In this document: positions 1,794 to 15,425 of the stretch, piece by piece | How the letters are laid out: each line of letters begins with the position of its first letter | Position numbering within the stretch: position 1 is the first letter of the stretch | Assembly (NCBI GenBank): GCA_017435905.1 | Contig: JAFSEB010000040.1 | Location: 3,796-67,795 of the forward strand | Direction: 5' to 3' | DNA from: Clostridia bacterium | GTDB lineage: Bacteria; Bacillota; Clostridia; Christensenellales; CAG-138 | DNA length: 64,000 nt | Made by a program: the position numbers and the translations under genes | The notes under the pieces: model-generated | Database searches by the model: none | What the model was told of the DNA's origin: nothing | Seen by the model: the letters and a program-made list of their open reading frames with translations, nothing else

Positions 1794-1829
1794 ACACCCC
1801 GGGAAAATGCTTCCCGGGGTGTTTTTTTA
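1794..1829. terminator. Bidirectional terminator between convergent genes
   Basis: ACACCCCGGGAA (1794-1805) pairs with TTCCCGGGGTGT (1811-1822). A T7 run follows and an A-rich run precedes. Confidence 0.6.
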
Positions 1830-2357
1830 TTCGATGATTTCCGGTATGCGGGCATCGACATCGTACTGCGTATCGATCAGCAGGTAAGGGATGCCGCAGC
1901 GCTTCGCCTCCCGAAGCATGTGGGCATTGTCGCAAAGAAGGCTTTCCACGGTGCAGTCTTCATCATCAAGCCTGTTTTCGATGATGTTTGCGTGGCGGCG
2001 GATATCCTCATAATGGGAACGGATATAGCCTTCGCTCATCACAAGGCAGATGCAGCGGATCTTCGCCAGGTAGGCTTCGGAAAAATCCTTCCGGTAATCG
2101 CAGGGGATATAGCAGCCCTCCACGATGAGGTTCTGCCCGTTTTCGATGGCGGTCTTGATCATTTCACGCACAATGGGCCACAAAAGGGCGGTCAGTTCCC
2201 CGTCATCGGAAAGGGGCGTTAAGGCTGTGTGACCGCTGCGGATAAGCCCCATCTTTAAATGGTCGATGGAAAGGTAGGGGTAGTGATACCGCACAAGCAG
2301 CTTTTGCGCAAGGGCGGTCTTCCCCGTGTGGGATGCGCCCGATATCAGTATGACCAT
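1827..2357 (-). CDS. P-loop NTPase / small kinase-like protein
   Basis: Start chosen at ATG 2357 (MVILISGASHTGKT, Walker A) with AGGAGGGAAACGG upstream. The longer ORF to 2564 has no RBS and an implausible N-terminus. Confidence 0.6.
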   Translation of the reverse strand: MVILISGASHTGKTALAQKLLVRYHYPYLSIDHLKMGLIRSGHTALTPLSDDGELTALLWPIVREMIKTAIENGQNLIVEGCYIPCDYRKDFSEAYLAKIRCICLVMSEGYIRSHYEDIRRHANIIENRLDDEDCTVESLLCDNAHMLREAKRCGIPYLLIDTQYDVDARIPEIIE

Positions 2358-2535
2358 CCGTTTCCCTCCTGCTGTCTTCACTGCTTCTATGGTATGACAG
2401 AACCGAAGGGTGCGCAAGAGAAAACTTGCCCGACATGTTCGGGCTTTTTTATGCCCGGAAAGGCACGAAAAAGGCAACATGCATCCGTTCAGTACCAAAA
2501 ACGGTACTTTACGGGAAATTCCTCCGTTTTTTCCC

Positions 2536-2564
2536 TTGATAATTAAAGCCGGATGCACTACCAT
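2536..2564 (+). promoter_or_regulatory. Candidate sigma-70-type promoter of the phage-like operon
   Basis: TTGATA (2536-2541), a 17-nt spacer, then TACCAT (2559-2564). Confidence 0.3.
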
Positions 2565-2576
2565 GTTCTTAAAAAC

Positions 2577-2590
2577 AGAACAAATGTTCT
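2577..2590. promoter_or_regulatory. Cheo-box-like LexA operator (GAAC-N4-GTTC)
   Basis: AGAACAAATGTTCT is a perfect inverted repeat, AGAACA/TGTTCT. It lies 13 nt downstream of the candidate -10 and 25 nt upstream of the ATG at 2615. Confidence 0.45.
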
Positions 2591-2614
2591 AATTACAAAA
2601 GGAGGAAATCGAAC

Positions 2615-3181
2615 ATGAAACAGAAAAACGGTTCCTCCGTGCGCATGATCGAAAACCGCATGGTGGATCCCAACGCCCTTGCCGCACACTACGCCGCTGC
2701 GGCATACGGCGATACAAAGGAACAGGAAAAGGCGGCTTATCGGGAAACGGAAAAAAGGCTGTTCGCCCTTCGGGCGCTGCAGGCACGCATGGCGGAAACG
2801 AAGGAGGAGCTCAGCGAACTTGAAAGCCTTGGCATCGATGCGCTTCGGGAGCACAGCGCTTCCCTTGTCAGGGTGCTGCGCCCCGGCATGCGCCTTGAGC
2901 CGGAGGAGGTGCACCGCATGCAGCTTGATATGCTCCGCGGCAGGCTTGCGGCGGATGAACGGGAGTGGAAGCGGATGCGCATCGCCCTCGATTTCATTCG
3001 GGATGATCCCTACTACCCTGCCGTGGAGGCACGCTACCTGAAGGGCATGGGGGATGGGGATGTGGCGCAGCGGCTTTGCTGTGATCCTTCCACCGTGCGC
3101 CGCAACAGGGTGCGCCTTGTGCGCACGCTGGCCCTTCGCCTTTACGGGCTTGGAGGTGTGCTGTGCGTGAACTCTTACTGA
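2615..3181 (+). CDS. Phage late-gene regulator-like protein (ArpU/RinA / sigma-70 region-4-like HTH). It could double as a small terminase.
   Basis: 188 aa. The C-terminal ...YLKGMGDGDVAQRLCCDPSTVRRNRVRLVRTLALRLYG looks like a sigma region-4 HTH. It sits immediately upstream of terL and overlaps it. Confidence 0.5.
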   Translation: MKQKNGSSVRMIENRMVDPNALAAHYAAAAYGDTKEQEKAAYRETEKRLFALRALQARMAETKEELSELESLGIDALREHSASLVRVLRPGMRLEPEEVHRMQLDMLRGRLAADEREWKRMRIALDFIRDDPYYPAVEARYLKGMGDGDVAQRLCCDPSTVRRNRVRLVRTLALRLYGLGGVLCVNSY

Positions 3182-4506
3182 CGGGTACGCCCAATGCAAG
3201 GCAGGCGGAGTTTTTTCGGGCAACGGCACGCCACACCGCCTACGGCGGCGCCCGGGGCGGCGGCAAAAGCTGGGCCATGCGGCGAAAGCTGGTGCTGCTT
3301 TGCCTTGCTACGCCAAACCTCAATGCGCTGCTGCTGCGCCGCACGCTGCCGGAGCTGAGGGAAAACCATGTGGTGCCCCTTTTGAAGGAGCTTCACGGCG
3401 TGGCGGAATATAACGGCACGGAGCGCACCTTCCGCTTTCCCAACGGATCACGGCTGCGCCTTGGCTACTGCGACGGCGCCAACGATGTGTACCAGTATCA
3501 GGGGCAGGAATACGATGTCATCGGCATGGAGGAAGCCACCCATTTTACAGAGGAACAAATGCGCTTTTTGACCACCTGCAACCGTACCGTAAAGGCGGAT
3601 TTCCGCCCACGGATGTACTATACCTGCAACCCGGGCAACGTGGGGCACGCATGGGTGAAGCGGCTTTTTATCGACAGGCAGTACCAAAGCGGCGAACGGC
3701 CGGAGGATTATGCCTTCATCCCTGCAAGGGTGTGGGACAACAAGGTGCTGCTTGCTGCGGATCCCGATTATGTGCGCCAGCTGCAGGCTTTGCCGGAGGA
3801 GCTTCGCCGTGCCCACCTTGACGGCGACTGGGATGTGCACGCAGGACAGTATTTCCGTGAGTTTTCCCGGGAAAAGCACGTGGCGGAACCCTTTTCCGTC
3901 CCCAAATGGTGGCGGCGCTTCCGCTCCATGGATTGGGGGTACAACGATCCCTGCTGCGTGCTGTGGCATGCGGTGGATGGGGATGGGCGTGTGTTCACCT
4001 ACAGGGAGCTGTATGTGCGGCACACGCAGGCATCGGAGGTGGCAAAGAAGATCATCTCCCTGACGGGGGATGAGGAGATCGCCTATACCGTGGCATCGCC
4101 GGATATGTGGCAGAAACGTGGGGCGGTACTGAAGGCGGAGGGCGGCTTTACCGGCGAGAGCATCGCAGAGCTGTTTGCACGCTTTGGCGTTGCGCTGACC
4201 CCTGCGGACAACGCCCGTGTGGCAGGCTGGCAGCGTGTGAGGGAATACCTTGCGGAAAACGAGGCAGGGGAGCCTTATTGGCAGGTGTTTCCCGATTGCG
4301 TGAACCTGATCCGCACGCTGCCCCTTCTGCAGTTTGACTCCCACAACCGTGAGGATGCTGCCGATGGGGATGACCACGCACCGGAGGCGCTCCGCTATGC
4401 GCTGATGTCACGCCCCCGAAAAAGCGAACAGGCCGCAGCAAGGCGGCAGAAACGTTACGATCCTTTTTCCCAGCCCACCGCCCGTGCAGGCTTTATGGAG
4501 CGCTGA
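3163..4506 (+). CDS. terL: Phage terminase large subunit
   Basis: 447 aa. It has the Walker A-like GGARGGGKS, DVIGMEEATHF, and C-terminal acidic nuclease-type motifs (HLDGDWDV, EDAADGDDHAPEA). The GTG start follows GGAGGTG. Confidence 0.9.
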   Translation: MRELLLTGTPNARQAEFFRATARHTAYGGARGGGKSWAMRRKLVLLCLATPNLNALLLRRTLPELRENHVVPLLKELHGVAEYNGTERTFRFPNGSRLRLGYCDGANDVYQYQGQEYDVIGMEEATHFTEEQMRFLTTCNRTVKADFRPRMYYTCNPGNVGHAWVKRLFIDRQYQSGERPEDYAFIPARVWDNKVLLAADPDYVRQLQALPEELRRAHLDGDWDVHAGQYFREFSREKHVAEPFSVPKWWRRFRSMDWGYNDPCCVLWHAVDGDGRVFTYRELYVRHTQASEVAKKIISLTGDEEIAYTVASPDMWQKRGAVLKAEGGFTGESIAELFARFGVALTPADNARVAGWQRVREYLAENEAGEPYWQVFPDCVNLIRTLPLLQFDSHNREDAADGDDHAPEALRYALMSRPRKSEQAAARRQKRYDPFSQPTARAGFMER

Positions 4507-4565
4507 GGAAACAAACACAGGCATACAACAACACAATACAAAACAAAAAAGAGAGGAAACAAGAT

Positions 4566-6164
4566 ATGACCAACAGCAATCGAAACAAGACCGAACGCCT
4601 TTACGAACTTTTTGAAGAATACCGCAGCGCATATGCCGCCGAATGGGACCGCCTTGAGCGCTGCGAGCGCATCTACCGGGGCGACCACTGGCAGGATGTG
4701 CCGCAGCAGGATGAAAACGAGCCCCGACCCGTAACGCCGGTGCTGCAGTCCACCATTGAAAACGTCCGTGCGGACCTTATTGACAACATGCCGGAGGCTG
4801 TCATCGTCTCCGACGGGGCAGGGCATGAGCGTGTGGCGGAAATGCTCACCGCCCTCATTCGGGAAAACCACCGCCTTTGCCGCTTCGACAGGGAATATGC
4901 CAACATGATGCACGACCTGCTTGTGGGCGGCTACATGGTGCAGGAGACCGGCTACGACAGCGAGCTCAACGGCGGCTTCGGCGCAGCATTTCTCCGTGCG
5001 GTGGATCCCCACAGCATCATGTTCGATCCCCTTGTTGCGGATATCCGCCAGTCGAGGGCGATCTTCAAATTTGCACCCTATCCGCTGGATTGGTTCCGTG
5101 CCCATTATCCCGAGCAGGCGGCGGATATGCGGGAGGATATCTTCCGCCCCGTGCGTGTGCAGGATGACCACCTCCGGCAGGAAAACCGGGATATGGTGCT
5201 GCTCATCGAGGCATGGGAACGGGAATACGACAACGAAAGCGGCAGGCACCGTGTGCACATGACAAAGCTGGCAGGCGGCGTCATCCTTGAGGACAGCCGT
5301 GACCACAAGCCCCAGGGCTATTTTGCCCACGGGGAATATCCCTTTGTGGTGACGCCCCTGTTCCTCCGCAAGGGCACGCCCCTCGGCTACGGGTTTGTGG
5401 ATATGTTCGAGACCCAGCAGCGCTATGCGGATAAGCTCGACCAGATCATCCTGAAAAATGCGCTGATGGCATCCCACAACAAGCTGCTCATCACCGGCGC
5501 TTCCGGCTTCGACCCGGAGGATCTTCGCGACTGGTCCAAGGAGGTGCACCGGGGCGAAAGCCTTGCAGGCGTGACATGGTTCCCCACCGCACCGCTGCCG
5601 GGCTACCTTCTCAGCTACGGGGAGCACATCCGCCAAAGCATCCGTGAGGAATCCGGCACCAACGATTTTTCCCGTGGACAGACCTACGGCGGCGTTACGG
5701 CAGCCTCTGCCATCGCTGCGCTGCAGGAAGCCGGCAGCAAGCGCAGCCGCATGATCGCCCGGGCGGTGCACAGCGCCTTTGAGGAAGCCGTCCGTCAGGA
5801 GCTGGAGGTGGAGCGTGAGTTTTGCGTGCTGCCCCGCCGCATCACCCTTGAAAATGCGGAGACAGGCAGGGAGGAAGCCATCGCCTTCACCGGCGAGACC
5901 ATGTTCGAGCTTACCGCACGCAAAAACCGCCTGCCCCTTGAGTTCGGCGTCAGCGTCAAGGCGCAGAAGGAGAACCGCTTCAGCGTGGCGGCCCATAATG
6001 AGCTTGTGCTGAGCCTTGTGAAGCTCAACATGATCACCCCTGCCATCGGCCTTGATATGCTGCTTTTCGACGGCAAACGGGAAGCGCAGGCGAAGATGCG
6101 TGAGCATCTCCGCATGGAGCAGGAGCAGGCACAGCAGGCGCAGGCTGCACCGCTGCAGCGTTAA
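4566..6164 (+). CDS. Phage portal protein
   Basis: 532 aa with RBS AGAGAGGAAA, located directly after terL. Size, position and the N-terminal ...RIYRGDHWQ... region are typical of portal proteins. The family was not verified by HMM. Confidence 0.75.
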   Translation: MTNSNRNKTERLYELFEEYRSAYAAEWDRLERCERIYRGDHWQDVPQQDENEPRPVTPVLQSTIENVRADLIDNMPEAVIVSDGAGHERVAEMLTALIRENHRLCRFDREYANMMHDLLVGGYMVQETGYDSELNGGFGAAFLRAVDPHSIMFDPLVADIRQSRAIFKFAPYPLDWFRAHYPEQAADMREDIFRPVRVQDDHLRQENRDMVLLIEAWEREYDNESGRHRVHMTKLAGGVILEDSRDHKPQGYFAHGEYPFVVTPLFLRKGTPLGYGFVDMFETQQRYADKLDQIILKNALMASHNKLLITGASGFDPEDLRDWSKEVHRGESLAGVTWFPTAPLPGYLLSYGEHIRQSIREESGTNDFSRGQTYGGVTAASAIAALQEAGSKRSRMIARAVHSAFEEAVRQELEVEREFCVLPRRITLENAETGREEAIAFTGETMFELTARKNRLPLEFGVSVKAQKENRFSVAAHNELVLSLVKLNMITPAIGLDMLLFDGKREAQAKMREHLRMEQEQAQQAQAAPLQR

Positions 6165-6179
6165 CGGGAGGCGCTCCCC

Positions 6180-6386
6180 ATGAAAAAGTTTGAACGCATG
6201 ACGAAGAAGGGAGCGGAGGCAGGGCTTTCCTGCCTTCTCTCCATCTGCACGGATACGGAGCAGAAAGCGGCGGACAGGATCGCAGCGGCAAAGGTGCTCA
6301 TCGACTTCGGCCGCAAGGCGGAAGCAGCGGAGGATGGCGCACTTCGGGTGGTGCTGGAGGGCGTGCCGAAGGAGTTTTTATGTTAA
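6180..6386 (+). CDS. Small hypothetical protein (68 aa) in the phage-like operon
   Basis: A GGGAGG RBS lies 6 nt before the ATG. The gene is tightly packed between the portal gene and the 623-aa gene. No recognisable motif was found. Confidence 0.45.
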   Translation: MKKFERMTKKGAEAGLSCLLSICTDTEQKAADRIAAAKVLIDFGRKAEAAEDGALRVVLEGVPKEFLC

Positions 6387-6413
6387 AAAATTAAGAAAAG
6401 GAAGGAAAAATAC

Positions 6414-8285
6414 ATGTATTGGGAGAATTTATACAATAAGAAGAACAAGGTAAACAAGCCTGTGGAGCTGGATTATTTTCAGCAGGAAAAGGTGAAAGAG
6501 TACCGGCAGCTTGCCGATGATGCAAACCGCTGGCTGGATCTTCCTACGGTACCTTCACGGCTTTCCTCTTCGGGGATCTCTATACCGGGCTTTCTGCATG
6601 AGGAGCAGAATGTCAGGAACATGCAGGCAGCCCTCGGCGTAGAGGAAGACGGCGATTGGGGCCCCGTAACGGAAAAAGCATTCCGCACCACCCTTATCAA
6701 CCAGCGTGACGGGGCGGAAAACGCCATTTCGGAGATATTTGCCGCTGCTGCGGCGGAGCAGGAACGGGCGGAGAAGGCGCAGCCGCAGCTTGCCTACGGC
6801 ACGGCGCAGGTGGGGCAGTACCTTGCCGCACCGGCATCAGTACAGAAACCGGTCTACCTTACCGCAGACGGCAGCCGCACCAATGTACCCACCGGCACTT
6901 CCCCGAAAAAGGAACAGGTCTACCTTACCGCAGACGGCAAGCGCACCAACGTGCCGGGCATCACCGCAAGCCCCGGTTCCTCCGGCAGCAAGGGCAGCAC
7001 CGGTATTGCAGCCTATGACCGCACGATGCAAACGGCAGATGCTTCCAGCCTTGGCAGCACCGCAAAAAATACCCTTGCTGCGCCAAGTTATAACCGCACT
7101 GCCCTTACTGCAGACGAGCCCCACGGCGCCGCAGCGGAGCGTGGGAACATCTACAACACCGCAGACGGCAAACGGACGAATGTGGTAGGCGGCGCACGGA
7201 ACAGCGGCATTGGCAGGCCGACAGCCATGGAAAAAGGAGAACCCATTGCCCGCTTTGGCGGTGCAGTGCCCCAAAACAGCAGCCCGACCGACGGCTATCA
7301 AGGTGGGCCTGTGGATGAGACGGTGCTTAGCAGCAAGACAAGCGAGCTTTTGAGTAACGTAGCGAATCAGATGAAACAAACTTACTTAACATACAAAGTA
7401 GATGCTGAGCCGTGGAGTGAAGAATGGAACATGCAGCGAATGAAGAAAAAAGAGCTGCACGATAATTGGCAAAAGGCGCAGTGGCTTTATTGGGATTATC
7501 TGCTGAATCATGAAACGGATGAAATGAACGCAGATGATGTCTATGCAGTTTCACCGAATCTTTTGATTGATTTGGCTGTAAGCGATGGAAAGGATTCGAT
7601 TGCATCGCACGGATATAACAAGGACAATTATCCGCATGTTTCGGTTATAGATAATGAATTGAAACAGTTCAGAGATGAGGGTGCCTTATACACATATGCG
7701 GGCAGCAAATTGAACTATTATACAAAGGTTAGTGGTTTGGAGCATATGTGCAGCATCTATTCGGTGGATTGGGGAAACGGCAATGTTGAATTCGTTACAG
7801 GACCGATTGTAAGCGGAACAATAATCAAAAACGAAAAGAAAAACACGGAAACCCCAAATGTAATCATGCCGTTTGCTGCGAGCATAATTGGTGCGAAAAA
7901 CTACACCGCTGAAATGGAAAAGATATTCAGAGGCGCAAAAGTTGAGTATGAAGGGATCATTCATTCGCATCCAAGCTATTTATCTGATACTTATGGCTAT
8001 GATAATAACGATGAGTTTTCCTGGGGTGACGGATTAGCTGCGCTGCTTGCAGGCCAAATAACCTTGACAACACAAGATAGTACTATGTTTGTCCTGAACC
8101 AGGATGAGGCACTGGAGGTAGTGATATCAGGATTAAAGGCTGATATTGCAAGACTCTTAAAGAATAGCAACTTAGAAAAAAGAGATGAAATTGATTGGAA
8201 CTCTATCATCCAAAGCTCACAAGATTTCCGCAGGGGAAGAAATTTTACAACTCTTCCGTACCACGCTTTTGACGCACGGGAATAA
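6414..8285 (+). CDS. Modular 623-aa protein with a PG_binding_1-like motif, tandem repeats and a C-terminal HSHP...DEFSWGD (JAB/DUF4329-like?) domain. It is the candidate main gene of a polymorphic locus.
   Basis: RBS AAGGAAGGA. There is no signal peptide and no TM helix. NMQAALGVEEDGDWGPVTEKAFRT is a peptidoglycan-binding-type motif. The motif (V/I)Y(L/N)TADG(S/K)RTNV occurs three times. The C-terminus reads GIIHSHPS-x12-DEFSWGDG...ITLTTQDSTMFVL. Confidence 0.8.
   Translation: MYWENLYNKKNKVNKPVELDYFQQEKVKEYRQLADDANRWLDLPTVPSRLSSSGISIPGFLHEEQNVRNMQAALGVEEDGDWGPVTEKAFRTTLINQRDGAENAISEIFAAAAAEQERAEKAQPQLAYGTAQVGQYLAAPASVQKPVYLTADGSRTNVPTGTSPKKEQVYLTADGKRTNVPGITASPGSSGSKGSTGIAAYDRTMQTADASSLGSTAKNTLAAPSYNRTALTADEPHGAAAERGNIYNTADGKRTNVVGGARNSGIGRPTAMEKGEPIARFGGAVPQNSSPTDGYQGGPVDETVLSSKTSELLSNVANQMKQTYLTYKVDAEPWSEEWNMQRMKKKELHDNWQKAQWLYWDYLLNHETDEMNADDVYAVSPNLLIDLAVSDGKDSIASHGYNKDNYPHVSVIDNELKQFRDEGALYTYAGSKLNYYTKVSGLEHMCSIYSVDWGNGNVEFVTGPIVSGTIIKNEKKNTETPNVIMPFAASIIGAKNYTAEMEKIFRGAKVEYEGIIHSHPSYLSDTYGYDNNDEFSWGDGLAALLAGQITLTTQDSTMFVLNQDEALEVVISGLKADIARLLKNSNLEKRDEIDWNSIIQSSQDFRRGRNFTTLPYHAFDARE
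6851..6955 (+). repeat. In-frame tandem coding repeat (two 39-nt copies, 66-nt period)
   Basis: GGTCTACCTTACCGCAGACGGCA(G/A)(C/G)CGCACCAA(T/C)GT(A/G)CC occurs at 6851-6889 and 6917-6955. A degenerate third copy lies at 7149-7185. Confidence 0.8.
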
Positions 8286-8303
8286 TTAAAAGAGGAGACA
8301 AAC

Positions 8304-8744
8304 ATGGAAAAGAAGGGATATCTGCTTCTCTATACGCTTTGCATTGTGGAGGGCATTGCTCTGATCATATTGTGCGTGTGCGGCGGTGCGTTGGAACTGG
8401 TGCGGGGGCTGTTGGCGCTTTCAGCATATGACTACCCCAACTGGAATATGGAAGTGGCCGCCTATCCGAAAAAGATCGCGTATGTGATCGGCAGGGATAC
8501 GGAAATCGATCTTTCAGGTACTGTTGTCAGTTATACCTTCGGGTGGCACGAACCGGAAGAGGACGAGATTTATGCTTATGATGACCCCATATTCGAAGTG
8601 GATACCTCGGCAGTGGATCTGACGAAGGAAGGGACATATGAAGTCGTCATTTCAACGGTTGATCCTACAGACTATGGTGCCGAATGCATCTTGCCGATCC
8701 AAGTGATCGCACCGCAGGAACAAAGTGCACATGTTATGCCCTGA
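8304..8744 (+). CDS. Single-pass membrane protein with one Big_3-like Ig domain (paralog A)
   Basis: RBS AGAGGAG. The N-terminal TM is LLLYTLCIVEGIALIILCVCGG, followed by YPKKIAYVIGRDTEIDLSG...DLTKEGTYEVVI...CILPIQVIAP. Confidence 0.75.
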   Translation: MEKKGYLLLYTLCIVEGIALIILCVCGGALELVRGLLALSAYDYPNWNMEVAAYPKKIAYVIGRDTEIDLSGTVVSYTFGWHEPEEDEIYAYDDPIFEVDTSAVDLTKEGTYEVVISTVDPTDYGAECILPIQVIAPQEQSAHVMP

Positions 8745-8760
8745 TGCGGGAGGGAAGACG

Positions 8761-9168
8761 ATGAAAAAGCAAAAAGATAATTGGCTGATAACATTGTGGA
8801 TCATTGAAAGCATTGCTCTTATCTGTGCTTTGGTCATGGTCGGACGGGTGCGGAATCTCGATGCAAGCAGGGATACAGATAATCCCGATTTTTATGCAAA
8901 AATCAGAAATTTTCCCGATAAAGTGGTTTATGTGGCGGGCGTGGATACGGAATTGGATCTGCGTGGCTGCACCATATCGGAATCGAGGCTTTTTGGTGCG
9001 GACGACGGGACCGCGGAAGATCTTGTCTCCAACTTAGGCACCCACTTTACCGTTGTGTCGGAAGATATCGACTTTTCCACCCCGGGCATTTATGAAGTGC
9101 GCATCCGTGGTTATGATACGGAATGTGCCTTCCCCATCGAAGTCATCGACCCTGCGGCATTGGAGTAA
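8761..9168 (+). CDS. Single-pass membrane Big_3-like Ig-domain protein (paralog B)
   Basis: Start ATG 8761 follows GGGAGGGAAG. The TM is WLITLWIIESIALICALVMVG, followed by FPDKVVYVAGVDTELDLRG...FSTPGIYEVRI...CAFPIEVIDP. Confidence 0.75.
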   Translation: MKKQKDNWLITLWIIESIALICALVMVGRVRNLDASRDTDNPDFYAKIRNFPDKVVYVAGVDTELDLRGCTISESRLFGADDGTAEDLVSNLGTHFTVVSEDIDFSTPGIYEVRIRGYDTECAFPIEVIDPAALE

Positions 9169-9206
9169 AACCCAAGCCCCGGCACACGGCTTTCCGTGCG
9201 TCGGGG
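9022..9206 (+). repeat. Direct repeat copy 1 (3' end of paralog B plus junction stem-loop)
   Basis: About 97% identical by eye to 11863-12046 (roughly 5 mismatches and 1 indel in 185 nt). Confidence 0.85.
9177..9206 (+). repeat. Conserved cassette-junction stem-loop
   Basis: CCCCGGCACACGG-CTTT-CCGTGCGTCGGGG. Homologous hairpins lie at 10161-10187, 11078-11107, 12018-12046 and 13950-13977. Only a weak T tract follows. Confidence 0.6.
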
Positions 9207-9632
9207 TTTGATGCACCGTTTCCCGGCTATCTCAGGCTGACCGAAAAGAGTGTCGAATACCTCTGCATGCTGCATTCGCATCCCTCACGGCGTGATCCAT
9301 CTGATGATAACGATGAGTTTTCCTGGGGCGACGGCCTTGTTGCAGCTGTTTCCGGCAAAATCTATCTGACCACGCCGCATGGGAATGTTTATGCTTTAAG
9401 TCAGGAAGATGCTAAAACAGTAATTGATACAGGACTCGATTGGGACAAAACTGTTTTTGCCCAAAAGAAGAAGCCGCTTTTGAAGGCGTTGTGGTATGGG
9501 CTCAATCCAACTGATGCTTTTTACTATAATGTGCTTGCTGACTACGATGAACATAGGAAGAAAGCGGCACAAACACTCCCCGGATACAATTATGAGACGT
9601 TTGATGCTAAGACCTATAACACATATAAATGA
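9207..9632 (+). pseudogene. Orphan 5'-truncated copy (CT-1) of the 623-aa protein's C-terminal domain
   Basis: The frame reads ...FPGYLRLTEKSVEYLCMLHSHPSRRDPSDDNDEFSWGDGLVAAVSGKIYLTTPHGNVYAL... and ends at 9632. It starts right at the hairpin with no RBS. The first in-frame ATG after the hairpin is 9267 (MLHSHPS). ORF 9123-9632 overlaps paralog B in another frame. Confidence 0.55.
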
Positions 9633-9655
9633 TCTTTGATACAAGGAAGGCTAAT

Positions 9656-10153
9656 ATGGAGCAAGGGAGCAAGAAGCGGATTTCGAAAGAAATAATTGTG
9701 AAATATGTGGCTGCAATGGCGATTATTATGGTATCTGCGCAGGTGATCTTCAGGGGCTGTTTTCCGTTTTTCTTGCTTGCGAATGGAGTTGAGTCCACAT
9801 ATCCCCAAGGCTACCGTATTCACACGCTCCCTGCAAAACAGGTGTATATAGCGGGACAGGATACGGAACTGGACCTTACCGGGGGCGAAATCTGCCATAG
9901 CAATGAACAAAACGAATTTCCTGAACAGTATGGTTACTGCACAACGGAATACTGTGAAGACCCTATTCCCATGGAAGCGGCATTGGCGGAATATGAATGG
10001 CTGAGCGTTGAAACCGATGCGGATTTTTCCATCCCGGGAGAATATAAGGTGACATTTTGGTATCCTAATTTCTTTGATGGTATGGATGATGGCAAGATGC
10101 TCTCCTGCTCCTTCCCCATCGTTGTCATTGACCCCAAAGATGCAGTCAGATAA
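9656..10153 (+). CDS. Single-pass membrane Big_3-like Ig-domain protein (paralog C)
   Basis: Start ATG 9656 follows AAGGAAGG. The TM is YVAAMAIIMVSAQVIF, followed by LPAKQVYIAGQDTELDLTGG...FSIPGEYKVTF...CSFPIVVIDPKDAVR. Confidence 0.7.
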   Translation: MEQGSKKRISKEIIVKYVAAMAIIMVSAQVIFRGCFPFFLLANGVESTYPQGYRIHTLPAKQVYIAGQDTELDLTGGEICHSNEQNEFPEQYGYCTTEYCEDPIPMEAALAEYEWLSVETDADFSIPGEYKVTFWYPNFFDGMDDGKMLSCSFPIVVIDPKDAVR

Positions 10154-10160
10154 AACGGAT

Positions 10161-10187
10161 CCGGCGTGCGGTTTTTCCGCGCGCCGG
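10161..10187 (+). repeat. Conserved cassette-junction stem-loop (variant)
   Basis: CCGGCGTGCGG-TTTTT-CCGCGCGCCGG, located 8 nt after the stop of paralog C. Confidence 0.5.
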
Positions 10188-10603
10188 GCTTGATGTACCG
10201 CTCGCCCGGCTATCTGAGCTTGATCGAAAACGGAGCAAAAGTGGAGCACCTCGGCATGCTGCATTCGCATCCGTCGAGAGCAAATGGCGAAGATAATGAC
10301 GAGTTTTCTTTGGGCGATGCTATTGTTTCTGTAGTGTCAAGAAGAATCTACTTGACTACGCCAGAGGGATATGTATACGCACTGGACAGGAAAGACGGCT
10401 GGAAACTTATCGTGCCCGGATATAAAAGGGAACGCGTAAATGCCGCTGATTGGCAACTTTATTACGGAAGCGTCACGGAAGAAGAACTTCCTAAATGGAT
10501 CGTGGAAGCTTTAGCCGAAGATTATGTTGCGAAGCAGGATGCAAAATCAAAAGGAAGTAATTTTGTGACGTTTGACATTAATACCTATAACACACGAAAG
10601 TAG
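10188..10603 (+). pseudogene. Orphan 5'-truncated copy (CT-2) of the 623-aa protein's C-terminal domain
   Basis: ...SPGYLSLIENGAKVEHLGMLHSHPSRANGEDNDEFSLGDAIVSVVSRRIYLTTPEGYVYAL...TFDINTYNTRK*. No RBS is present. Candidate starts are GTG 10166 (inside the hairpin) or ATG 10193. Confidence 0.55.
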
Positions 10604-10611
10604 AGGGTTTT

Positions 10612-11070
10612 ATGGACAAAAAACAGACAAGCCGAAGCTGGCTTAAAACGCTGCTGATTGTGGAAAATGTGATCATCATCGCAGTTTTGCTGCACTTTGG
10701 TGTTAAGGAGATCAAGAGAGTGGTAAGTTATATTCGTTATCCAAGCTCTGTGTATGTAATCAACATACATCGCTATCCGGACAAGCTGGTTTACGTTGCC
10801 GGAGAAGATACGGTGCTGGATCTTACCGGAGGCGAACTGTGCCTGAGCAGCGAGGGCGGCTTTACAAACGGGTTTCCTTGCGAATTTAATCCGGAACGGA
10901 AAAACATGGGAGAAGGATATTGTGAGATCGTATATTCTATGACAGAAGATGAATATGAAACGAATGCAGATCTTTCCGTGCCAGGCAGATACTATATTCG
11001 CTTTTCGCTGGATAGAGGAACTTGCTCCTTCCCCATCGTGGTCATCGACCCTAAAGATGCGGTGAAATAA
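10612..11070 (+). CDS. Single-pass membrane Big_3-like Ig-domain protein (paralog D)
   Basis: RBS AGAGGG. The TM is WLKTLLIVENVIIIAVLLHFGV, followed by YPDKLVYVAGEDTVLDLTGG...LSVPGRYYIRF...CSFPIVVIDPKDAVK. Confidence 0.75.
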   Translation: MDKKQTSRSWLKTLLIVENVIIIAVLLHFGVKEIKRVVSYIRYPSSVYVINIHRYPDKLVYVAGEDTVLDLTGGELCLSSEGGFTNGFPCEFNPERKNMGEGYCEIVYSMTEDEYETNADLSVPGRYYIRFSLDRGTCSFPIVVIDPKDAVK

Positions 11071-11077
11071 GCCCAAG

Positions 11078-11107
11078 CCCCGGCACATGGCTTTCCGTGC
11101 GCCGGGG
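11078..11107 (+). repeat. Conserved cassette-junction stem-loop
   Basis: CCCCGGCACATGG-CTTT-CCGTGCGCCGGGG. Confidence 0.55.
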
Positions 11108-11163
11108 CGAATGCACTCTTTGTCCGGCCGGGGCTTCTTAAAGGAAAGCGGAGCAAAGACCAA
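11108..11163 (+). pseudogene. Short remnant of a third orphan C-terminal cassette
   Basis: CGAATGCAC...TCCGGCCGGGGCTTCTTAAAGGAAAGCGGAGCAAAGACCAAG parallels the first ~55 nt of CT-1 and CT-2 (..PGYL.L.E.GAK..). Homology then stops and the next Ig-like gene begins. Confidence 0.4.
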
Positions 11164-11188
11164 GGGCAGTAAATAAAGTGAGGAATCA

Positions 11189-11623
11189 ATGAAAAAAAGC
11201 CATTTGCAGCACGCTTTGCTGCTCTATGTGATTTGTGTTGCTGAAAGCTTGTTTTTAATTGCGTATTCAGCAGCGTGGGTTGGCTCGCGGATCATGGTTT
11301 CCATGTCGAACCCGAGGGACACGGTCAACAGGGTAACGGTCGTGAACTACCCGGAACAGTTGGTATATGTTCTTGGTATAGATACGGAACTGAAACTTGA
11401 CGGTTTGACTGTGGCTTATGCAAAATACGGGGATGATGTGACCGAAAATGATCTCTACGAAATAGGCAGTCAATATGTAACAGTGGATACATCCCGGGTC
11501 GATCTTACAACGCCGGGCGTATACGAAGCATACATCGTGCTGTTTGACACATGCTGCATATTGCCGATAGAGGTTATCGATCTACAGCAATATGCTGCAG
11601 CGGAAGGGGTGGAGCATCGGTGA
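11189..11623 (+). CDS. Single-pass membrane Big_3-like Ig-domain protein (paralog E)
   Basis: RBS GTGAGGA. The TM is ALLLYVICVAESLFLIAYSAAWVG, followed by YPEQLVYVLGIDTELKLDG...LTTPGVYEAYI...CCILPIEVID. Confidence 0.75.
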   Translation: MKKSHLQHALLLYVICVAESLFLIAYSAAWVGSRIMVSMSNPRDTVNRVTVVNYPEQLVYVLGIDTELKLDGLTVAYAKYGDDVTENDLYEIGSQYVTVDTSRVDLTTPGVYEAYIVLFDTCCILPIEVIDLQQYAAAEGVEHR

Positions 11624-12009
11624 AAGCAAAAAAAGACAACTGGCTGATCATATTGTGTGTTGTGGAAAGCATGGCGATCCTTTTGCTCGCAGCATATCAA
11701 TTGCACAGGAAGTACGGCTCGCATATTGAATATTATGCGCTGGCGTCCCATTTACCCAACAAGATCGCATATGTGGCAGGCGTGGATACAGAGCTCGACC
11801 TGACCGGTGCCACCGTTATCGAGTCAAGCAACACAGCGTATGCGGTGGGCGAGGAATACGACCTTGTCTCCAACCTTGGCACCCACTTTACCGTTGTGTC
11901 GGAAGATATCGACTTTTCCACCCCGGGCATTTATGAAGTGCGCATCCGTGGTTATGATACGGAATGTGTCTTCCCCATCGAAGTCATCGACCCTGCGGCA
12001 TTGGAGTAA
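11620..12009 (+). CDS. Single-pass membrane Big_3-like Ig-domain protein (paralog F)
   Basis: The GTG start at 11620 overlaps the stop of paralog E (GTGA) and follows GGAAGGGGTGGAG. The TM is WLIILCVVESMAILLLAAY, followed by LPNKIAYVAGVDTELDLTG. The C-terminal 48 aa are nearly identical to paralog B. Confidence 0.7.
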   Translation: MKAKKDNWLIILCVVESMAILLLAAYQLHRKYGSHIEYYALASHLPNKIAYVAGVDTELDLTGATVIESSNTAYAVGEEYDLVSNLGTHFTVVSEDIDFSTPGIYEVRIRGYDTECVFPIEVIDPAALE

Positions 12010-12046
12010 AACCAAAGCCCCGGCACACGTTTTCCGTGCGTCGGGG
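11863..12046 (+). repeat. Direct repeat copy 2 (3' end of paralog F plus junction stem-loop)
   Basis: About 97% identical to 9022-9206. The hairpin is at 12018-12046. After it only about 10 nt (CGAATGC..) of the orphan-cassette 5' end remain. Confidence 0.85.
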
Positions 12047-12122
12047 CGAATGCTTTTAAAATGGCAAATGCAGTATGCTGCCTGAGGGCGGTATTTGACG
12101 GGATCCGCCGAAGAAAGGCAAG

Positions 12123-12812
12123 CTACTCCCGGCAGCTTGGAGTGCAGGTATGAATGGTCATGATCTTCATCAGGGTGCCGCTTTCTTCGTCCACGGCGGA
12201 ATCAAAGGTCATCTTTGTGCTGAAATCGGCGGATGTGTCGGAAGTGACGGTGAGAGACTCATCAAACGCAGTCGTTCTGAACCACCGCATCTGCATATCA
12301 AGAAGCGCACGGCTTTCCTGCGGATGTTGCGAAGCAAGGTCAGGTGTGTAGATCTCATACAGGGCATCAAGCATTGCCTGAAGTGATACGGGGATCTCAT
12401 CGGGGGCTTCATCCTTTGGCACTACATAGCTGATGATCACCTTGTGTACGGGCAGGTCTGCGTGCATGGGCGGCCAGATACGGGAAAAGCCGGTAAGGGA
12501 AAAGGCGATAAAGGTATCATCCTCCGTGTGGGTGGACATGTTGCGGATATAGAGATCATAGGGCGGCCCGGGGGCTTTCCAGTATCCGTCCGCAAGGATC
12601 TCCACGCCGTCATCGGCAAGGGCTTCATTGCAGCGTGCGATGAGTGCATCGGAGCGGATCTCCAGCCCTGCTTTTTTTCGTTCCCGGGCGGCGGAGGCGA
12701 TGTCGGAGCCGGTCAGCCACTTTGCAATAAAAAGGATGCATGCAAAAACCGCTGCAGCAATCCATATCATGCGGCGAAGGGTGCGGGTCTTTTTGGCGGA
12801 TATGTTTTGCAT
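12123..12812 (-). CDS. Membrane-anchored hypothetical protein (229 aa) on the opposite strand inside the array
   Basis: Start ATG 12812 lies 7 nt after AAGGAG. It has an N-terminal basic stretch plus the TM IWIAAAVFACILFIAKW. No family motif was recognised. Confidence 0.6.
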   Translation of the reverse strand: MQNISAKKTRTLRRMIWIAAAVFACILFIAKWLTGSDIASAARERKKAGLEIRSDALIARCNEALADDGVEILADGYWKAPGPPYDLYIRNMSTHTEDDTFIAFSLTGFSRIWPPMHADLPVHKVIISYVVPKDEAPDEIPVSLQAMLDALYEIYTPDLASQHPQESRALLDMQMRWFRTTAFDESLTVTSDTSADFSTKMTFDSAVDEESGTLMKIMTIHTCTPSCRE

Positions 12813-13015
12813 AGCGGTGCTCCTTACGCTTTTTTCCAATATAGCATGAAAGACGGCATGCGTAAAGCACGGTGAGGTGTCTTATTGACGCACGGGACAG
12901 AAAGGAATATGCTTAGACTGAAGATGACACAGCTTTTGCGCAGCATACGGCTGCGAAAAACGTGGTTCGTATTATATTGGTCACCCGAAACAAACGAAAA
13001 AAGGAGGCGCTGCAC

Positions 13016-13486
13016 ATGGAAAAACAGGAAAAACGCAATAACCTGCTGCGAAGGATCCTGACGGCAGAAAACCTGCTGCTCCTGCTTTTGATCGGCTTTT
13101 TATGGATGCGGTCCTGCGTGGAGAATTTCGACGGTGTGGAGATTCTTTATGATGCCGGCATCCACCGTTGGCCGGATAAGCTCACCTATGTGATCGGCGA
13201 GGATACGGCGCTTGACCTGACGGGCGGCGTGATCTGCGCCCACGAGTATGACCGGCCGGATGAACCTGCCCGTTCCTGCGTTTCCTTTGCAGGGAAAGAA
13301 ATCGACCACGGCGAGGACAGCTTTACCTACACCATGCTGGAAGCCTGGGAAGACGGGGAATTGACATCGGATATCGACTTTACACGGGAAGGGGTATACA
13401 CCGTCAGGATCCTGCATCAGGATTGGACAGAACTGTGTTTCCCCGTAACGGTGGTGGCGCCGGACAGCCCGGCGGCGCCGCACTGA
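13016..13486 (+). CDS. Single-pass membrane Big_3-like Ig-domain protein (paralog G)
   Basis: Start ATG 13016 follows AAGGAGG. The TM is ILTAENLLLLLLIGFLWM, followed by WPDKLTYVIGEDTALDLTGG...FTREGVYTVRI...CFPVTVVAP. Confidence 0.7.
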   Translation: MEKQEKRNNLLRRILTAENLLLLLLIGFLWMRSCVENFDGVEILYDAGIHRWPDKLTYVIGEDTALDLTGGVICAHEYDRPDEPARSCVSFAGKEIDHGEDSFTYTMLEAWEDGELTSDIDFTREGVYTVRILHQDWTELCFPVTVVAPDSPAAPH

Positions 13487-13504
13487 CGGTGAAAGGAGAA
13501 CACC

Positions 13505-13945
13505 ATGGAACGAAAACAGAGCAGCTGGGTGAAAACGCTTTTTATCGTGGAAAACGCCATCCTTGCGGCGGTGCTGCTTTGCTATCTGCTGGTTAAGGGA
13601 ATCATGTGGTATGAAGACGAGTGGGTGCGCCACGGCAACATCCACCGCTATCCCACAAAGCTCACCTATGTGGCAGGTGTGGACAAAGAGCTTGACTTGA
13701 CGGGCGGCGAGGTCTGCTTCAGCACCGGCTTAGACCAATCCAAAGGCATATTCTGCGCTTCCGATGCGGCCCGTGCGGACGGGCAGAAAGGGCGCTGCAA
13801 GGCGATCCTGCCCATGGCGGAGGCGAAGGTTTCCACCAATGCGGATCTGGACGTGCCGGGGCAGTATTATGTGCAGGTGGAATACCGGGATAGCACCTGC
13901 TTCTTCCCCATCGTGGTCATCGACCCCAAAGATGCGGTGAAATAA
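13505..13945 (+). CDS. Single-pass membrane Big_3-like Ig-domain protein (paralog H)
   Basis: RBS AAAGGAGA. The TM is WVKTLFIVENAILAAVLLCYLLV, followed by YPTKLTYVAGVDKELDLTGG...LDVPGQYYVQV...CFFPIVVIDPKDAVK. Confidence 0.75.
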   Translation: MERKQSSWVKTLFIVENAILAAVLLCYLLVKGIMWYEDEWVRHGNIHRYPTKLTYVAGVDKELDLTGGEVCFSTGLDQSKGIFCASDAARADGQKGRCKAILPMAEAKVSTNADLDVPGQYYVQVEYRDSTCFFPIVVIDPKDAVK

Positions 13946-13949
13946 ACAA

Positions 13950-13980
13950 ACAGGCGCACGGCTTTCCGTGCGCCTGTTTT
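13950..13980. terminator. Terminator at the end of the array (homologous to the junction stem-loops), shared with the convergent gene
   Basis: ACAGGCGCACGG-CTTT-CCGTGCGCCTGT, followed by TTTT and preceded by an A-rich run. Confidence 0.7.
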
Positions 13981-13993
13981 GCATTTGCTGCTA

Positions 13994-15274
13994 TTACATG
14001 AATTCCACCGCATCGAAGCGGAAGCCGAGGGGTGCGGCCGCATCCGCTTTGAGGGTGAGGGAAACGGCGGCAAGCTCTGCTGCCTGTGCGGTGCCTGGCG
14101 TGCCCGAAAGGAGCATGCCGTACACGGTGAGACCTTCTGCCGTGCGCACGGCGTCATCCATGCGGAAGGCATAGGGCGCACGGGGGTGGATGGGGATGCG
14201 GTACACGCCGTTTTCATATGCGGTGCCGTCGCCGAGGGTGGCAAGGTCGCCGGGCAGGCTGCCTGTGAAGTAAGATGTGAAGGCGGCGGCGTAATCCGCT
14301 TCGGTCACCTCCGCAAAATAGCCTTCTTCTTCGCCGGTGGTGAGCATATAGGTCATGAAGGCGCTTGCCGCATAGGGGGAGGGGCTGCCGCCTGTAAAGC
14401 CCTCGTAATTGGGGGCGCAGGCAGCGGCGATGGCGGCAAAGCCCGGCAGCAGATGCTCGTATTCCTCCGTGCTGAGGGCATCGCCCACGGCGGCAGGGTA
14501 CAGGGCGCTGCGCTCCACCGTAAAGGAAAGGATGCCCTGTTCCTCCGGGGCAAGAACGCCTGCACGGATGTAGAAGGTATAGCCTGTCTCCGACACGGTG
14601 AAGCCGCTCACAAGGTCAAGGGCCAGGCGCACATCCTCCGGGGCGATATCCGCATAATAGGCGTCGCCGTTGCGGTCGATCTCGTTGAAGATCTGCTGTG
14701 CCACAAGGGCTTCCGGCTCATACTGCCCGGAAAGGGCGGCGAAGGAATATTCCGTGCCGGCGCTGTCCAGCACCAGCGCATGGGGGATGACCTCCTTCGC
14801 TTCGCCGAAATAAACGGTCTCAAGGAACAATATGGCGGTGTATTCGCTGCCGCCGAGAAGCGCATCCGTCACTTCCCAGCTGACGGCGGTGGAAGGGGCT
14901 GCTTCGCCCTCCACCCGGTCCGCAAGGGGCAGCCGCTCCTCACGCACCCGGTCGATGAGCTCCTCCTCATAAAGGGAGACCGCCTCGTTGCGCCCATCCC
15001 CCTCGGGGAACAGGGGCAGGGAGTAGGTGAGCACATAATCCGCCGTTTCCGTATCGCTGCCCTCCGGGAAAAAGAGGGTCTGCTCCTTAAAGGAAGAAAC
15101 GATGGCTTCCCCCGGCGCATCGGCGGCAGGGGTCTCCTGCGGCTCCTCCGTGGGGGCAGGGGTGGAGATCACGCTTTCGCTGCCCACATCCAAAGCGGGA
15201 GCATCCTCTTTGCAGGCGGAAAGGGAAACCATAAGAAACGCTGCAAGGCATGCAGCCAAAAGCCGTTTTGTCAT
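13994..15274 (-). CDS. Putative lipoprotein (426 aa)
   Basis: Start ATG 15274 follows GGAGGT. The signal peptide MTKRLLAACLAAFLMVSLSAC carries a lipobox Cys. The mature part was not assigned (possibly DUF3298/DUF4163-like, unverified). Confidence 0.7.
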   Translation of the reverse strand: MTKRLLAACLAAFLMVSLSACKEDAPALDVGSESVISTPAPTEEPQETPAADAPGEAIVSSFKEQTLFFPEGSDTETADYVLTYSLPLFPEGDGRNEAVSLYEEELIDRVREERLPLADRVEGEAAPSTAVSWEVTDALLGGSEYTAILFLETVYFGEAKEVIPHALVLDSAGTEYSFAALSGQYEPEALVAQQIFNEIDRNGDAYYADIAPEDVRLALDLVSGFTVSETGYTFYIRAGVLAPEEQGILSFTVERSALYPAAVGDALSTEEYEHLLPGFAAIAAACAPNYEGFTGGSPSPYAASAFMTYMLTTGEEEGYFAEVTEADYAAAFTSYFTGSLPGDLATLGDGTAYENGVYRIPIHPRAPYAFRMDDAVRTAEGLTVYGMLLSGTPGTAQAAELAAVSLTLKADAAAPLGFRFDAVEFM

Positions 15275-15425
15275 CGGCATTACCTCCGTAGCTGATAGAA
15301 AAACAGTAACACAACAACACGCACAATTCAACCGAAAAGATTGTAAACAACGCACGGGGATTGCCTTTCCCTGCGCTTGTTGCTATACTGAAACCAATTC
15401 ATGAAAGAAAAAAGGAGCGTTTTTT

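Follow-up and report, generated by a model that had tools for sequence, protein, structure and literature searches.

A mosaic gene with an exchangeable C-terminus, a candidate polymorphic toxin, in a phage-derived block of a Christensenellales genome

Why does a single open reading frame (ORF) in the genome of a Christensenellales bacterium change its base composition half-way, and what might its product do? The gene in question (6414..8285, forward strand) encodes 623 aa, starts with ATG behind the Shine-Dalgarno (SD) sequence GGAAGG, and lies in a 64,000-nt stretch of contig JAFSEB010000040.1 (assembly GCA_017435905.1), here called the window. An earlier note, written from the sequence alone, had described a front half rich in guanine and cytosine (GC), an AT-rich back half and a break inside the ORF, and had proposed that the C-terminal part was acquired or exchanged separately, together with the cassettes downstream. 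Our analysis supported this chimera reading: the gene is a real mosaic. In our judgement it probably heads a polymorphic toxin/immunity locus whose target lies outside the cytoplasm.

A sliding profile gave a GC content of 0.60–0.65 across 6600–7350 and of 0.40–0.41 across 7350–8250. In a maximum-likelihood two-segment fit, the best split fell at nt 7348 (0.588 on the left, 0.407 on the right), with a log-likelihood ratio (LLR) of 30.7 that was matched by none of 300 codon shuffles of the same gene; the two-segment LLR was only 0.9–9.4 in twelve other genes of the window. The GC content of third codon positions (GC3) split at codon 320, from 0.65 in the N-terminal half to 0.42 in the C-terminal half (LLR 16.6). 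Since GC3 shifts too, the break reflects a change in codon usage and is not due just to the Ala/Gly/Pro-rich linker. By gene, GC3 was 0.71–0.80 in housekeeping genes, 0.71–0.76 in the genes for the terminase large subunit (TerL) and portal protein, 0.46–0.61 in the cassettes at 8304–12009, and host-like (0.69 and 0.73) in the last two cassette genes, Imm7 and Imm8 (13016–13945). The cassette array overall (GC 0.45–0.50) was less AT-rich than the C-terminal half of the 623-aa gene. The composition break inside the ORF was thereby confirmed, as were the low GC running through the array to about 12.1 kb and the GC-richer paralogs (G and H in the earlier note) beyond it. The breakpoint in the GC and codon profile is highly significant, which favours the chimera idea.

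Relatives of the 623-aa protein were few: 41 matches were found among 1.84 billion representative proteins and three by a word-indexed search, a C-terminal profile scan of IMG/VR returned no relative, and tblastn against GenBank phages gave no match. Most relatives are short metagenomic contigs or metagenome-assembled genomes (MAGs). Homology to three of the contigs ended in a first exchange zone (7200..7350, forward strand), at about 7200 in L001, 7260 in L002 and 7330 in L003, with the change-point at 7348. The left flank is shared with L001, a Clostridia MAG that was 98.2% identical to window positions 1808–7205 and unrelated beyond. Its protein P0001 shared 95% identity over residues 1–265 and then continued into a different C-terminal domain, for which, as for the same type of domain in L012 and P0013, no Pfam or PDB relative was found. 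L002 was 96.5% identical to 5901–7266 and then carried another variant of a JAB-like domain, and L003 was 83.6% identical to 6936–7318 before diverging. The same N-terminus was thus found on different C-termini (L001, L002), and a separate exchange of the C-terminus was supported by the 5' half that the three contigs share with the window (84–98% DNA identity) before they diverge. The C-terminal domain also occurred behind quite different N-termini (P0004, P0005, P0014 and P0044). In all seven relatives examined the front was GC-richer than the back, with 0.59–0.65 in front and 0.37–0.48 behind in six of them; the front of L012 was lower (0.49).

Conspecific contig pairs caught the replacement of cassettes, including an exchange point within the catalytic motif. 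L004 and L011 were 98.9% identical over 10.5 kb up to toxin residue 168, after which L011 had a different C-terminus; the tail of L004 and its small partner gene (Imm) reappeared in L011 as a downstream orphan pair (97.4% identity). In the pair L003 and L009 (99.6% identity), a domain that was part of an intact gene in L009 survived in L003 as an orphan that kept some of the linker; this truncated copy started inside a linker repeat unit, behind other cassettes. A second exchange zone (7962..8030, forward strand; repeat families D8 and D11) coincided with the catalytic motif HSHP...NDEFSWGD; nowhere else is the DNA of the main gene and of the orphans so well conserved. Contigs L117–L119, from three other samples, were 99.6% identical to window 8000–9066, comprising the last 95 residues and the genes Imm1 and Imm2. 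Upstream of the junction at nt 8000 they had a head resembling orphan fragment 1 of the window, and the cassette was placed after the gene for a 238-aa membrane-anchored protein (p238) or after another Imm gene. P0003 was a chimeric protein matching an orphan-1-like head and a window-type tail. The recurrence of 8000–9066 as a displaced cassette bore out the proposal that the C-terminus had been acquired together with the cassettes downstream. These comparisons showed that the C-terminal module is replaced by homologous recombination at the linker (~7200–7350) and at the catalytic motif (~7962–8030), and that the exchanged unit takes in the downstream small genes. They also showed that old C-termini are left as promoterless fragments with their partner genes, building the array at 8304–13945, and that the AT-rich cassettes have a composition foreign to the GC-rich host.

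The array (8304–13945) held eight Imm paralogs of 129–165 codons, counted from SD-preceded starts (alignment A2), and two orphan fragments homologous to the last 115–140 residues of the 623-aa protein (alignment A1); all lie on the forward strand. Imm1 (8304..8744; 146 aa), with an N-terminal membrane anchor and an Ig-like domain, is the candidate cognate immunity protein; its gene starts 19 nt after the toxin stop and has its own SD. Imm2 (8761..9168), a paralog by alignment A2, accompanies the toxin tail and Imm1 in L117 and L118. They are followed by orphan C-terminal fragment 1 (9198..9632), which lacks the Glu-bearing half of the domain, Imm3 (9656..10153), orphan C-terminal fragment 2 (10166..10603), the block 10612..12009 with Imm4 (10612–11070), Imm5 (11189–11623) and Imm6 (11620–12009), and the block 13016..13945 with Imm7 (13016–13486) and Imm8 (13505–13945). 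An SD was present for 8/8 Imm genes and 0/2 orphan fragments, and each orphan had an Imm paralog directly 3'. Comparable arrays of orphans and Imm genes were found in L003, L009, L011, L031 and L035.

All eight Imm paralogs had one hydrophobic helix near the N-terminus with Lys/Arg ahead of it. In Imm1 the transmembrane segment spanned residues 7–25, with an N-flank rich in Lys/Arg, and the AlphaFold2 (AF2) model (predicted local distance difference test score, pLDDT, 84.6) consisted of a long helix followed by a beta-sandwich. In Foldseek the sandwich matched the surface domains Big_3, Rib, InlK and PKD, and one Imm relative scored above the InlK_D3 threshold. Distant Imm homologs in L007 carried a lipobox in place of the transmembrane anchor. 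An acidic residue was kept inside the membrane helix of all eight paralogs (residues about 10–20), in the motif (I/V/A)(V/I/A)E(N/S/G), as in CIVEGIAL, WIIESIAL and LIVENVII; a charge retained in this way in a single-pass anchor hints at contacts inside the membrane.

Cassette junctions were marked by GC-rich hairpins. The one at 9173..9210 (forward strand; repeat families D6 and D10) had sister copies at 10156–10192, 11071–11114, 12017–12047 and 13948–13979, which likewise follow Imm genes; the free energies of the hairpins ranged from −23.5 to −29.5 kcal/mol. Both orphan fragments start in the 3' arm of a strong hairpin after the preceding gene, fragment 1 in that of the hairpin at 9173..9210. 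The junction peptide beginning AFRAPGRMHSLSG was also present at the start of orphan ORFs from other metagenomes (P0028, P0030, P0037 and P0047). A terminator-like T-run was present only at the last hairpin copy (13948–13979).

The AT-rich C-terminal module (7347..8285, forward strand) comprised a helical pre-domain and a JAB/MPN-like core, as seen in alignment A3, the AF2 model and Foldseek. Among the 13 sequences of alignment A3, columns E113, H187, H189 and D209 were invariant and S188 near-invariant. These correspond to E443 (nt 7740), H517-S-H519 (7962–7970, with S518) and D539 of the 623-aa protein; S536 sits with D539 in FSWGD (8016–8030). The C-terminal module thus carries the residue pattern 'E, H[ST]H, S, D' by which Zhang et al. 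(2012, PMC3482391) define Tox-JAB-2, a toxin domain with overlap to Pfam DUF4329. A Pfam scan of the full 623-aa protein gave no DUF4329 match. Within the family, DUF4329 (PF14220) was matched by 4/13 members and Prok-JAB by 3/13 (best E 0.0066 and 0.0074); the two orphan fragments reached 17.5 and 14.6 bits for DUF4329 against a gathering threshold of 28.6, with E=0.0042 for orphan fragment 2, still below threshold. The AF2 model of the module (mean pLDDT 81.7) showed the helical pre-domain and an alpha/beta core. Its top nine Foldseek matches in the PDB were all JAMM/MPN proteins (BRCC36, Npl4, Rpn11-type), followed by Cap3 and CSN5, with weak E values of 3.7e-3 to 5e-2. A PDB sequence search with the C-terminal half and the A3 profile returned a chance match and spurious beta-hairpin matches to designed repeat proteins. 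The motif, together with the weak fold matches, suggests a JAB-type fold and active site. We infer that the module acts as a metal-dependent hydrolase of the JAB/MPN type, with Tox-JAB-2/DUF4329 as its nearest counterparts among toxin domains; its resemblance to DUF4329 stays below the Pfam threshold, and membership of that family would be tentative.

The conserved GC-rich N-terminal module (6414..7200, forward strand; 96–98% DNA identity to L001 and L002) began with a short leader, after which came a PG_binding-like motif and a linker that bears repeats. The motif, a PG_binding_1-like half-motif (NMQAALGVEEDGDWGPVTEKAFRT), lies at aa 69–92 (nt 6618–6689). Three 12-aa repeats (repeat families D7 and D9) lie in the Pro/Ser/Thr/Ala-rich spacer at aa 147–158, 169–180 and 246–257 (nt 6852–6887, 6918–6953 and 7149–7184), as previously described. 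The peptidoglycan-binding-type motif that had been proposed stood in part: it is present, and relatives aligned to residues 48–101 do match PG_binding_1/PG_binding_3, with P0013 scoring 67.7 bits for PG_binding_1, well above threshold, over several half-repeats (five repeats) and P0044, P0005 and P0014 scoring 17–19 bits, but in the 623-aa protein itself it stays below threshold. Scans of the full protein and its halves against Pfam, NCBIfam, PHROGs and PADLOC gave no supra-threshold family, and residues 1–310 matched only one weak PHROG of unknown function in Pfam, NCBIfam and PHROG. No MuF model (PF04233 or PF06152) was matched in Pfam at E<=0.1, and no head-morphogenesis family in PHROG. 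BLASTP was also used to ask if the N-terminus is a relative of the particle's own PG_binding_1 protein (G8) and found nothing. The maximum Kyte-Doolittle mean over 19 residues was 0.93, so there is no hydrophobic segment and hence neither a Sec signal nor a membrane anchor; the absence of a signal peptide was thus confirmed.

As in polymorphic toxin systems, a stable N-terminal region carried C-terminal domains that differed between close relatives, stand-alone C-terminal cassettes had immunity-type genes downstream, and a small gene directly downstream, the putative immunity gene, travelled with the C-terminal domain. An N-terminal trafficking domain that would name an export route was not found in Pfam, NCBIfam or PHROG. 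Modular replacement of the C-terminus, co-transfer, silent fragments with spare partners, and foreign composition are the traits that define polymorphic toxin/immunity loci, and from them we infer such a locus, in which toxicity, immunity and delivery are putative. The C-terminal domain would be a metal-dependent hydrolase acting outside the membrane, and the Imm proteins would neutralise incoming toxin at the cell surface. Partners that are anchored with the Ig-like domain outside, together with the PG_binding-like motif in the toxin, point to an envelope target. JAB enzymes are isopeptidases, which makes the peptidoglycan cross-link a chemically reasonable target. The toxin thus probably acts in the cell envelope, for example on an isopeptide-type peptidoglycan cross-link, and not in the cytoplasm. 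Extracytoplasmic immunity has a precedent in Imm65, the partner of Tox-JAB-1, which is a lipoprotein (PMC3482391).

The gene is hosted by a phage-derived block on the forward strand. Its left end is a small helix-turn-helix/sigma-like protein at the position of a terminase small subunit (2615..3181; 188 aa), assigned from phrog_36 (7.6e-8) and a weak match to sigma-70 factors of the extracytoplasmic function (ECF) type, and kept ahead of TerL in L001, L004 and L009–L012. It is followed by TerL (3163..4506; 447 aa; phrog_979, 3.5e-52), a P22/SU10-type portal protein (4566..6164; 532 aa; phrog_156, 1.4e-54) and orf68 (6180..6386), a conserved 68-aa ORF with no family match. The L001 and L004 portal orthologs matched Pfam P22_portal/SU10_portal. 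Portal relatives with 47–88% identity occurred in 21 species-level genomes, and identity to any of 50,697 GenBank phage records was <=30%. orf68 follows the portal gene in L001, L002, L004, L009–L012, L014, L021 and L086, and the order portal, orf68, toxin was repeated in L001, L004 and L009–L012. Against L001 the block had 22 synonymous and 3 non-synonymous changes (4 and 1 in the small 188-aa protein, 7 and 1 in TerL). Against L004, which has different chromosomal neighbours and 69–84% aa identity, the ratio of non-synonymous to synonymous substitution rates (dN/dS) was 0.09–0.22 (0.087 for TerL at 84% aa identity), and across comparisons it was 0.03–0.22.

A matching major capsid gene was found in 80 species-level genomes (55–85% identity, with two outliers at 39–40%), and all carriers of the set, at least 80 species sampled in gut, rumen and digesters, were Clostridia of Christensenellales-like type. 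The canonical order was TerL, portal, (orf68), scaffold, capsid, SU10-type adaptor, virion proteins and NlpC/P60. In many genomes the set was split, with both parts in the same MAGs on different contigs: TerL and portal lay between moxR/transglutaminase and polA/coaE, and the capsid module adjoined iscRSU or pepF. Structural and packaging genes were thus conserved across many species under purifying selection, and in relatives they were dispersed over several loci with housekeeping genes on either side; the window shows just the TerL–portal part for its own genome. No capsid, tail, lysis, integrase or replication genes were found in the 64-kb window. An intact prophage was dropped as an explanation for want of capsid, tail and lysis genes, and a randomly decaying remnant was rejected from the synonymous and non-synonymous counts and the conservation of TerL–portal in many species. 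The overall pattern of this gene set fits a domesticated element resembling a gene transfer agent (GTA). A podovirus-like GTA of Faecalibacterium (FpGTA) at two loci was described in a 2026 study, which also reported GTA-like DNA packaging in Christensenellaceae with no gene cluster assigned (PMC12946183); the set described here may be the cluster behind that packaging. Toxin genes of the family were placed after portal–orf68 or directly after the capsid gene. The canonical clusters L088, L091, L099 and L100 had none at either place, neither ahead of the scaffold gene nor behind the capsid gene, so the toxin gene is an accessory insert. In the lineage of the window, orf68 and the gene of the lipobox protein lipo453 flank the variable region, near tyrS, as in L013 and L031.

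The lack of a signal peptide and the position as an accessory insert in a head/packaging operon suggest that the toxin is most likely made together with phage-like particles. It would be released by lysis of the producer; carriage in or on the capsid seems less likely. Non-classical export by lysis or capsid association, which the earlier note had put forward, is our best guess and the weakest step of the reading. Going further, a vertically inherited, GTA-like particle system might be armed with an exchangeable toxin cargo, loaded into or onto the capsid via the N-terminal module and brought to neighbouring cells, where a JAB-type isopeptidase would cut the wall from outside unless a matching Imm protein at the surface intercepts it; we regard this as doubtful.

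Several results weigh against a polymorphic toxin that acts in the envelope and is made with particles. The 623-aa protein had no Pfam match to PG_binding_1 (PF01471) at E<=0.1, and no recognised trafficking domain or signal (MuF, LXG, WXG, signal peptide). Scores of family members for DUF4329 and Prok-JAB all stayed under the Pfam gathering threshold (best 17.5 versus 28.6 bits), the Foldseek matches to JAMM/MPN proteins were weak (TM scores 0.20–0.25, E at best 3.7e-3), and a search of a viral fold library with the JAB model gave nothing meaningful. Similarity among toxin tails was not significantly correlated with that among Imm proteins (16 pairs, Mantel r=0.11, reached in 800/5000 permutations); cognate pairing is therefore based on physical co-transfer only, and we make no claim of co-evolution. 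As the window itself lacks capsid, tail and lysis genes, the proposal that the protein is made together with particles is carried over from relatives. Finally, toxin JAB domains were proposed to be nucleases by Zhang et al. (PMC3482391), which would conflict with an envelope target.

Other explanations were weighed against this reading. Podovirus-type elements commonly carry internal wall-degrading proteins, such as T7 gp16, and with its P22/SU10 portal and SU10 adaptor the element is of podovirus type. The 623-aa protein could then be an ejection or virion-associated wall-degrading protein for DNA delivery, with a C-terminus diversifying in an arms race against membrane-anchored, Ig-like paralogs that resident elements would gather for superinfection exclusion. 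The locus would be built just as in the toxin reading, but would serve entry and exclusion instead of killing. The place of the gene in the head operon, adjoining the portal or capsid gene, and the combination of a PG_binding-like motif with a hydrolase-type domain agree with this, and the extracytoplasmic partners would suit an exclusion function. We nevertheless find it unlikely: the canonical clusters L088, L091, L099 and L100 do without the gene, which is hence dispensable for particle function, and have NlpC/P60 and PG_binding_1 proteins of their own. In L005 and L006, moreover, the gene adjoins tyrS with neither terminase nor portal, and silent orphan fragments typify toxin loci, not structural genes.

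The nuclease proposal leads to another alternative, a JAB toxin acting in the cytoplasm after injection via the capsid or portal as in the MuF model, with the anchored paralogs blocking its uptake. Zhang et al. likened toxin JAB clades to RadC-like nucleases and noted that a few immunity proteins with transmembrane helices may block uptake (PMC3482391), and the position in a packaging module matches the MuF model. Such a toxin would need an intracellular antidote, and none was seen: all small genes of the array encode an anchor plus an Ig-like domain. Partners that are anchored or lipoproteins, together with the PG_binding-like motif, indicate the envelope instead, and no MuF domain was found in Pfam or PHROGs, so that we hold a cytoplasmic target to be improbable. 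Least credible of all, and very nearly dismissed, is an artefact, either a metagenome mis-join of two populations at a repeated region or a GC drop caused by amino-acid content alone. Related contigs do often break here (L001 inside the gene, L004 just after the first Imm gene), a sign that the region is hard to assemble. Against this, the reading frame is intact over the junction, GC3 shifts along with GC1 and GC2, complete front/back genes followed by arrays occur in the independent assemblies L009, L011, L012 and L008, and 8000–9066 recurs in three other samples at 99.6% identity.

A polymorphic toxin/immunity locus of this kind shares features with several known systems. The closest in concept are the MuF toxins of temperate phages, encoded in the packaging module by the portal gene (Jamet et al. 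2017, PMC5576092) and described as a 'MuF phage-capsid-like system' by Zhang et al. (2012, PMC3482391). Like them, the gene lies in a DNA-packaging/head module downstream of the portal, beside terminase genes; it joins a conserved N-terminus to a variable toxin domain at the C-terminus and is followed by small ORFs; and it lacks a classical secretion signal, in a setting comparable to prophage remnants in gut Firmicutes. Unlike them, the 623-aa protein has no MuF domain detectable with Pfam or PHROGs, a 68-aa ORF separates portal and toxin gene, the candidate immunity proteins are membrane-anchored and Ig-like instead of small and cytosolic, long orphan-cassette arrays are present, and the host element looks vertically inherited, split and GTA-like, not like a temperate phage. 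With the Tox-JAB-2/DUF4329 domains (PF14220) of Rhs, type VI secretion (T6SS) and type VII secretion (T7SS) toxins it shares the E, H[ST]H, S, D pattern, a location at the very end of a polymorphic protein, on the C-terminal side, and weak but recurrent Pfam matches to DUF4329 and Prok-JAB. It differs in that all matches are below the gathering score, the spacer between HxH and S-x-x-D is longer (14–19 residues), a helical pre-domain of ~85 residues precedes the core, and the N-terminal carrier is not Rhs, LXG or WXG. The known partner of Tox-JAB-2 is an NTF2-like cytosolic protein (E. coli only), whereas an anchored Ig-like protein is found here.

CdiA-CT/CdiI and Rhs loci contain orphan toxin/immunity cassettes. 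As in those loci, displaced 3' fragments and immunity genes pile up downstream of the main gene, the fragments retain a conserved stretch that permits recombination back into it, and the cassettes are AT-rich in a GC-richer host. In contrast to CdiA and Rhs, two nested exchange points are present, one of them inside the catalytic motif, so that the last ~95 residues and the immunity genes can be swapped alone; in addition, GC-rich hairpins lie at the junctions and the context is Gram-positive and phage-derived. Like FpGTA, the set comprises TerS-like, TerL, portal, scaffold and capsid genes of short-tailed-phage type and is near-ubiquitous in a clade of gut Clostridia and split over at least two chromosomal loci (PMC12946183). 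A toxin cargo has not been described for FpGTA.

Polymorphic toxins shape the coexistence of strains in dense communities such as the gut, and the locus adds a very rare family to them. The carrier domain fits no known family, and an immunity family made up of Ig-like proteins, either membrane-anchored or lipoproteins, seems not to have been described before. The outward-facing Imm proteins hint that toxin-type JAB domains may act in the envelope rather than in the nuclease role proposed earlier, and the genomic context suggests that Christensenellales keep a conserved set of phage-derived genes that is split between loci. If toxin-armed particles were real after all, they would provide the first link between a GTA and a polymorphic toxin and the first Tox-JAB domain with an envelope target assigned.

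At the border of the array lies the gene of p238 (12123..12839, reverse strand), a membrane-anchored protein of 238 aa with homologs in L005/L006, L012, L035 and L117. In L012 it stands directly after the alternative toxin of P0001 type, and p238 may be the immunity protein for the P0001-type domain. The variable region is closed in all relatives by lipo453 (13994..15355, reverse strand), a lipobox protein at whose homolog the array stops in L010, L031 and L034–L036; in L013 and L030 it follows the portal gene directly, without a toxin between. lipo453 had a GC3 change-point of its own near codon 56 (LLR 15.4), roughly at the end of the signal/lipobox region; its whole-gene GC LLR of 9.4 was reached by 1/300 shuffles. 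Past lipo453 come ordinary chromosomal genes, namely a class A beta-lactamase-like gene, tyrS and glycogen genes. The beta-lactamase-like gene (15426–16205, forward strand; Beta-lactamase2, 2.6e-61) adjoins the island and keeps its place relative to lipo453 and tyrS in L005, L031 and L034. The left border of the phage-derived block is formed by a gene for an AAA_33/zeta-toxin-like kinase (1827–2564, reverse strand), which has a GC content of 0.52, below that of its neighbours, and is conserved in L001.

Toxin-free species (L018, L020, L022 and L026) had two or three paralogous lipoproteins of ~235 aa between portal and polA, about 1.5–5 kb downstream of the portal gene. These belong to family F4, with the lipobox LVSC or LASC, and may be an immunity-like array left without a toxin. 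In L008, a Christensenellales prophage-like region, three consecutive genes with a GC-rich start and an AT-rich end (5353–7173 and 8121–10786 of that contig) lie directly after the major capsid gene, and the first of them encodes a 606-aa protein with PG_binding-like motifs and a C-terminal domain of unknown type.

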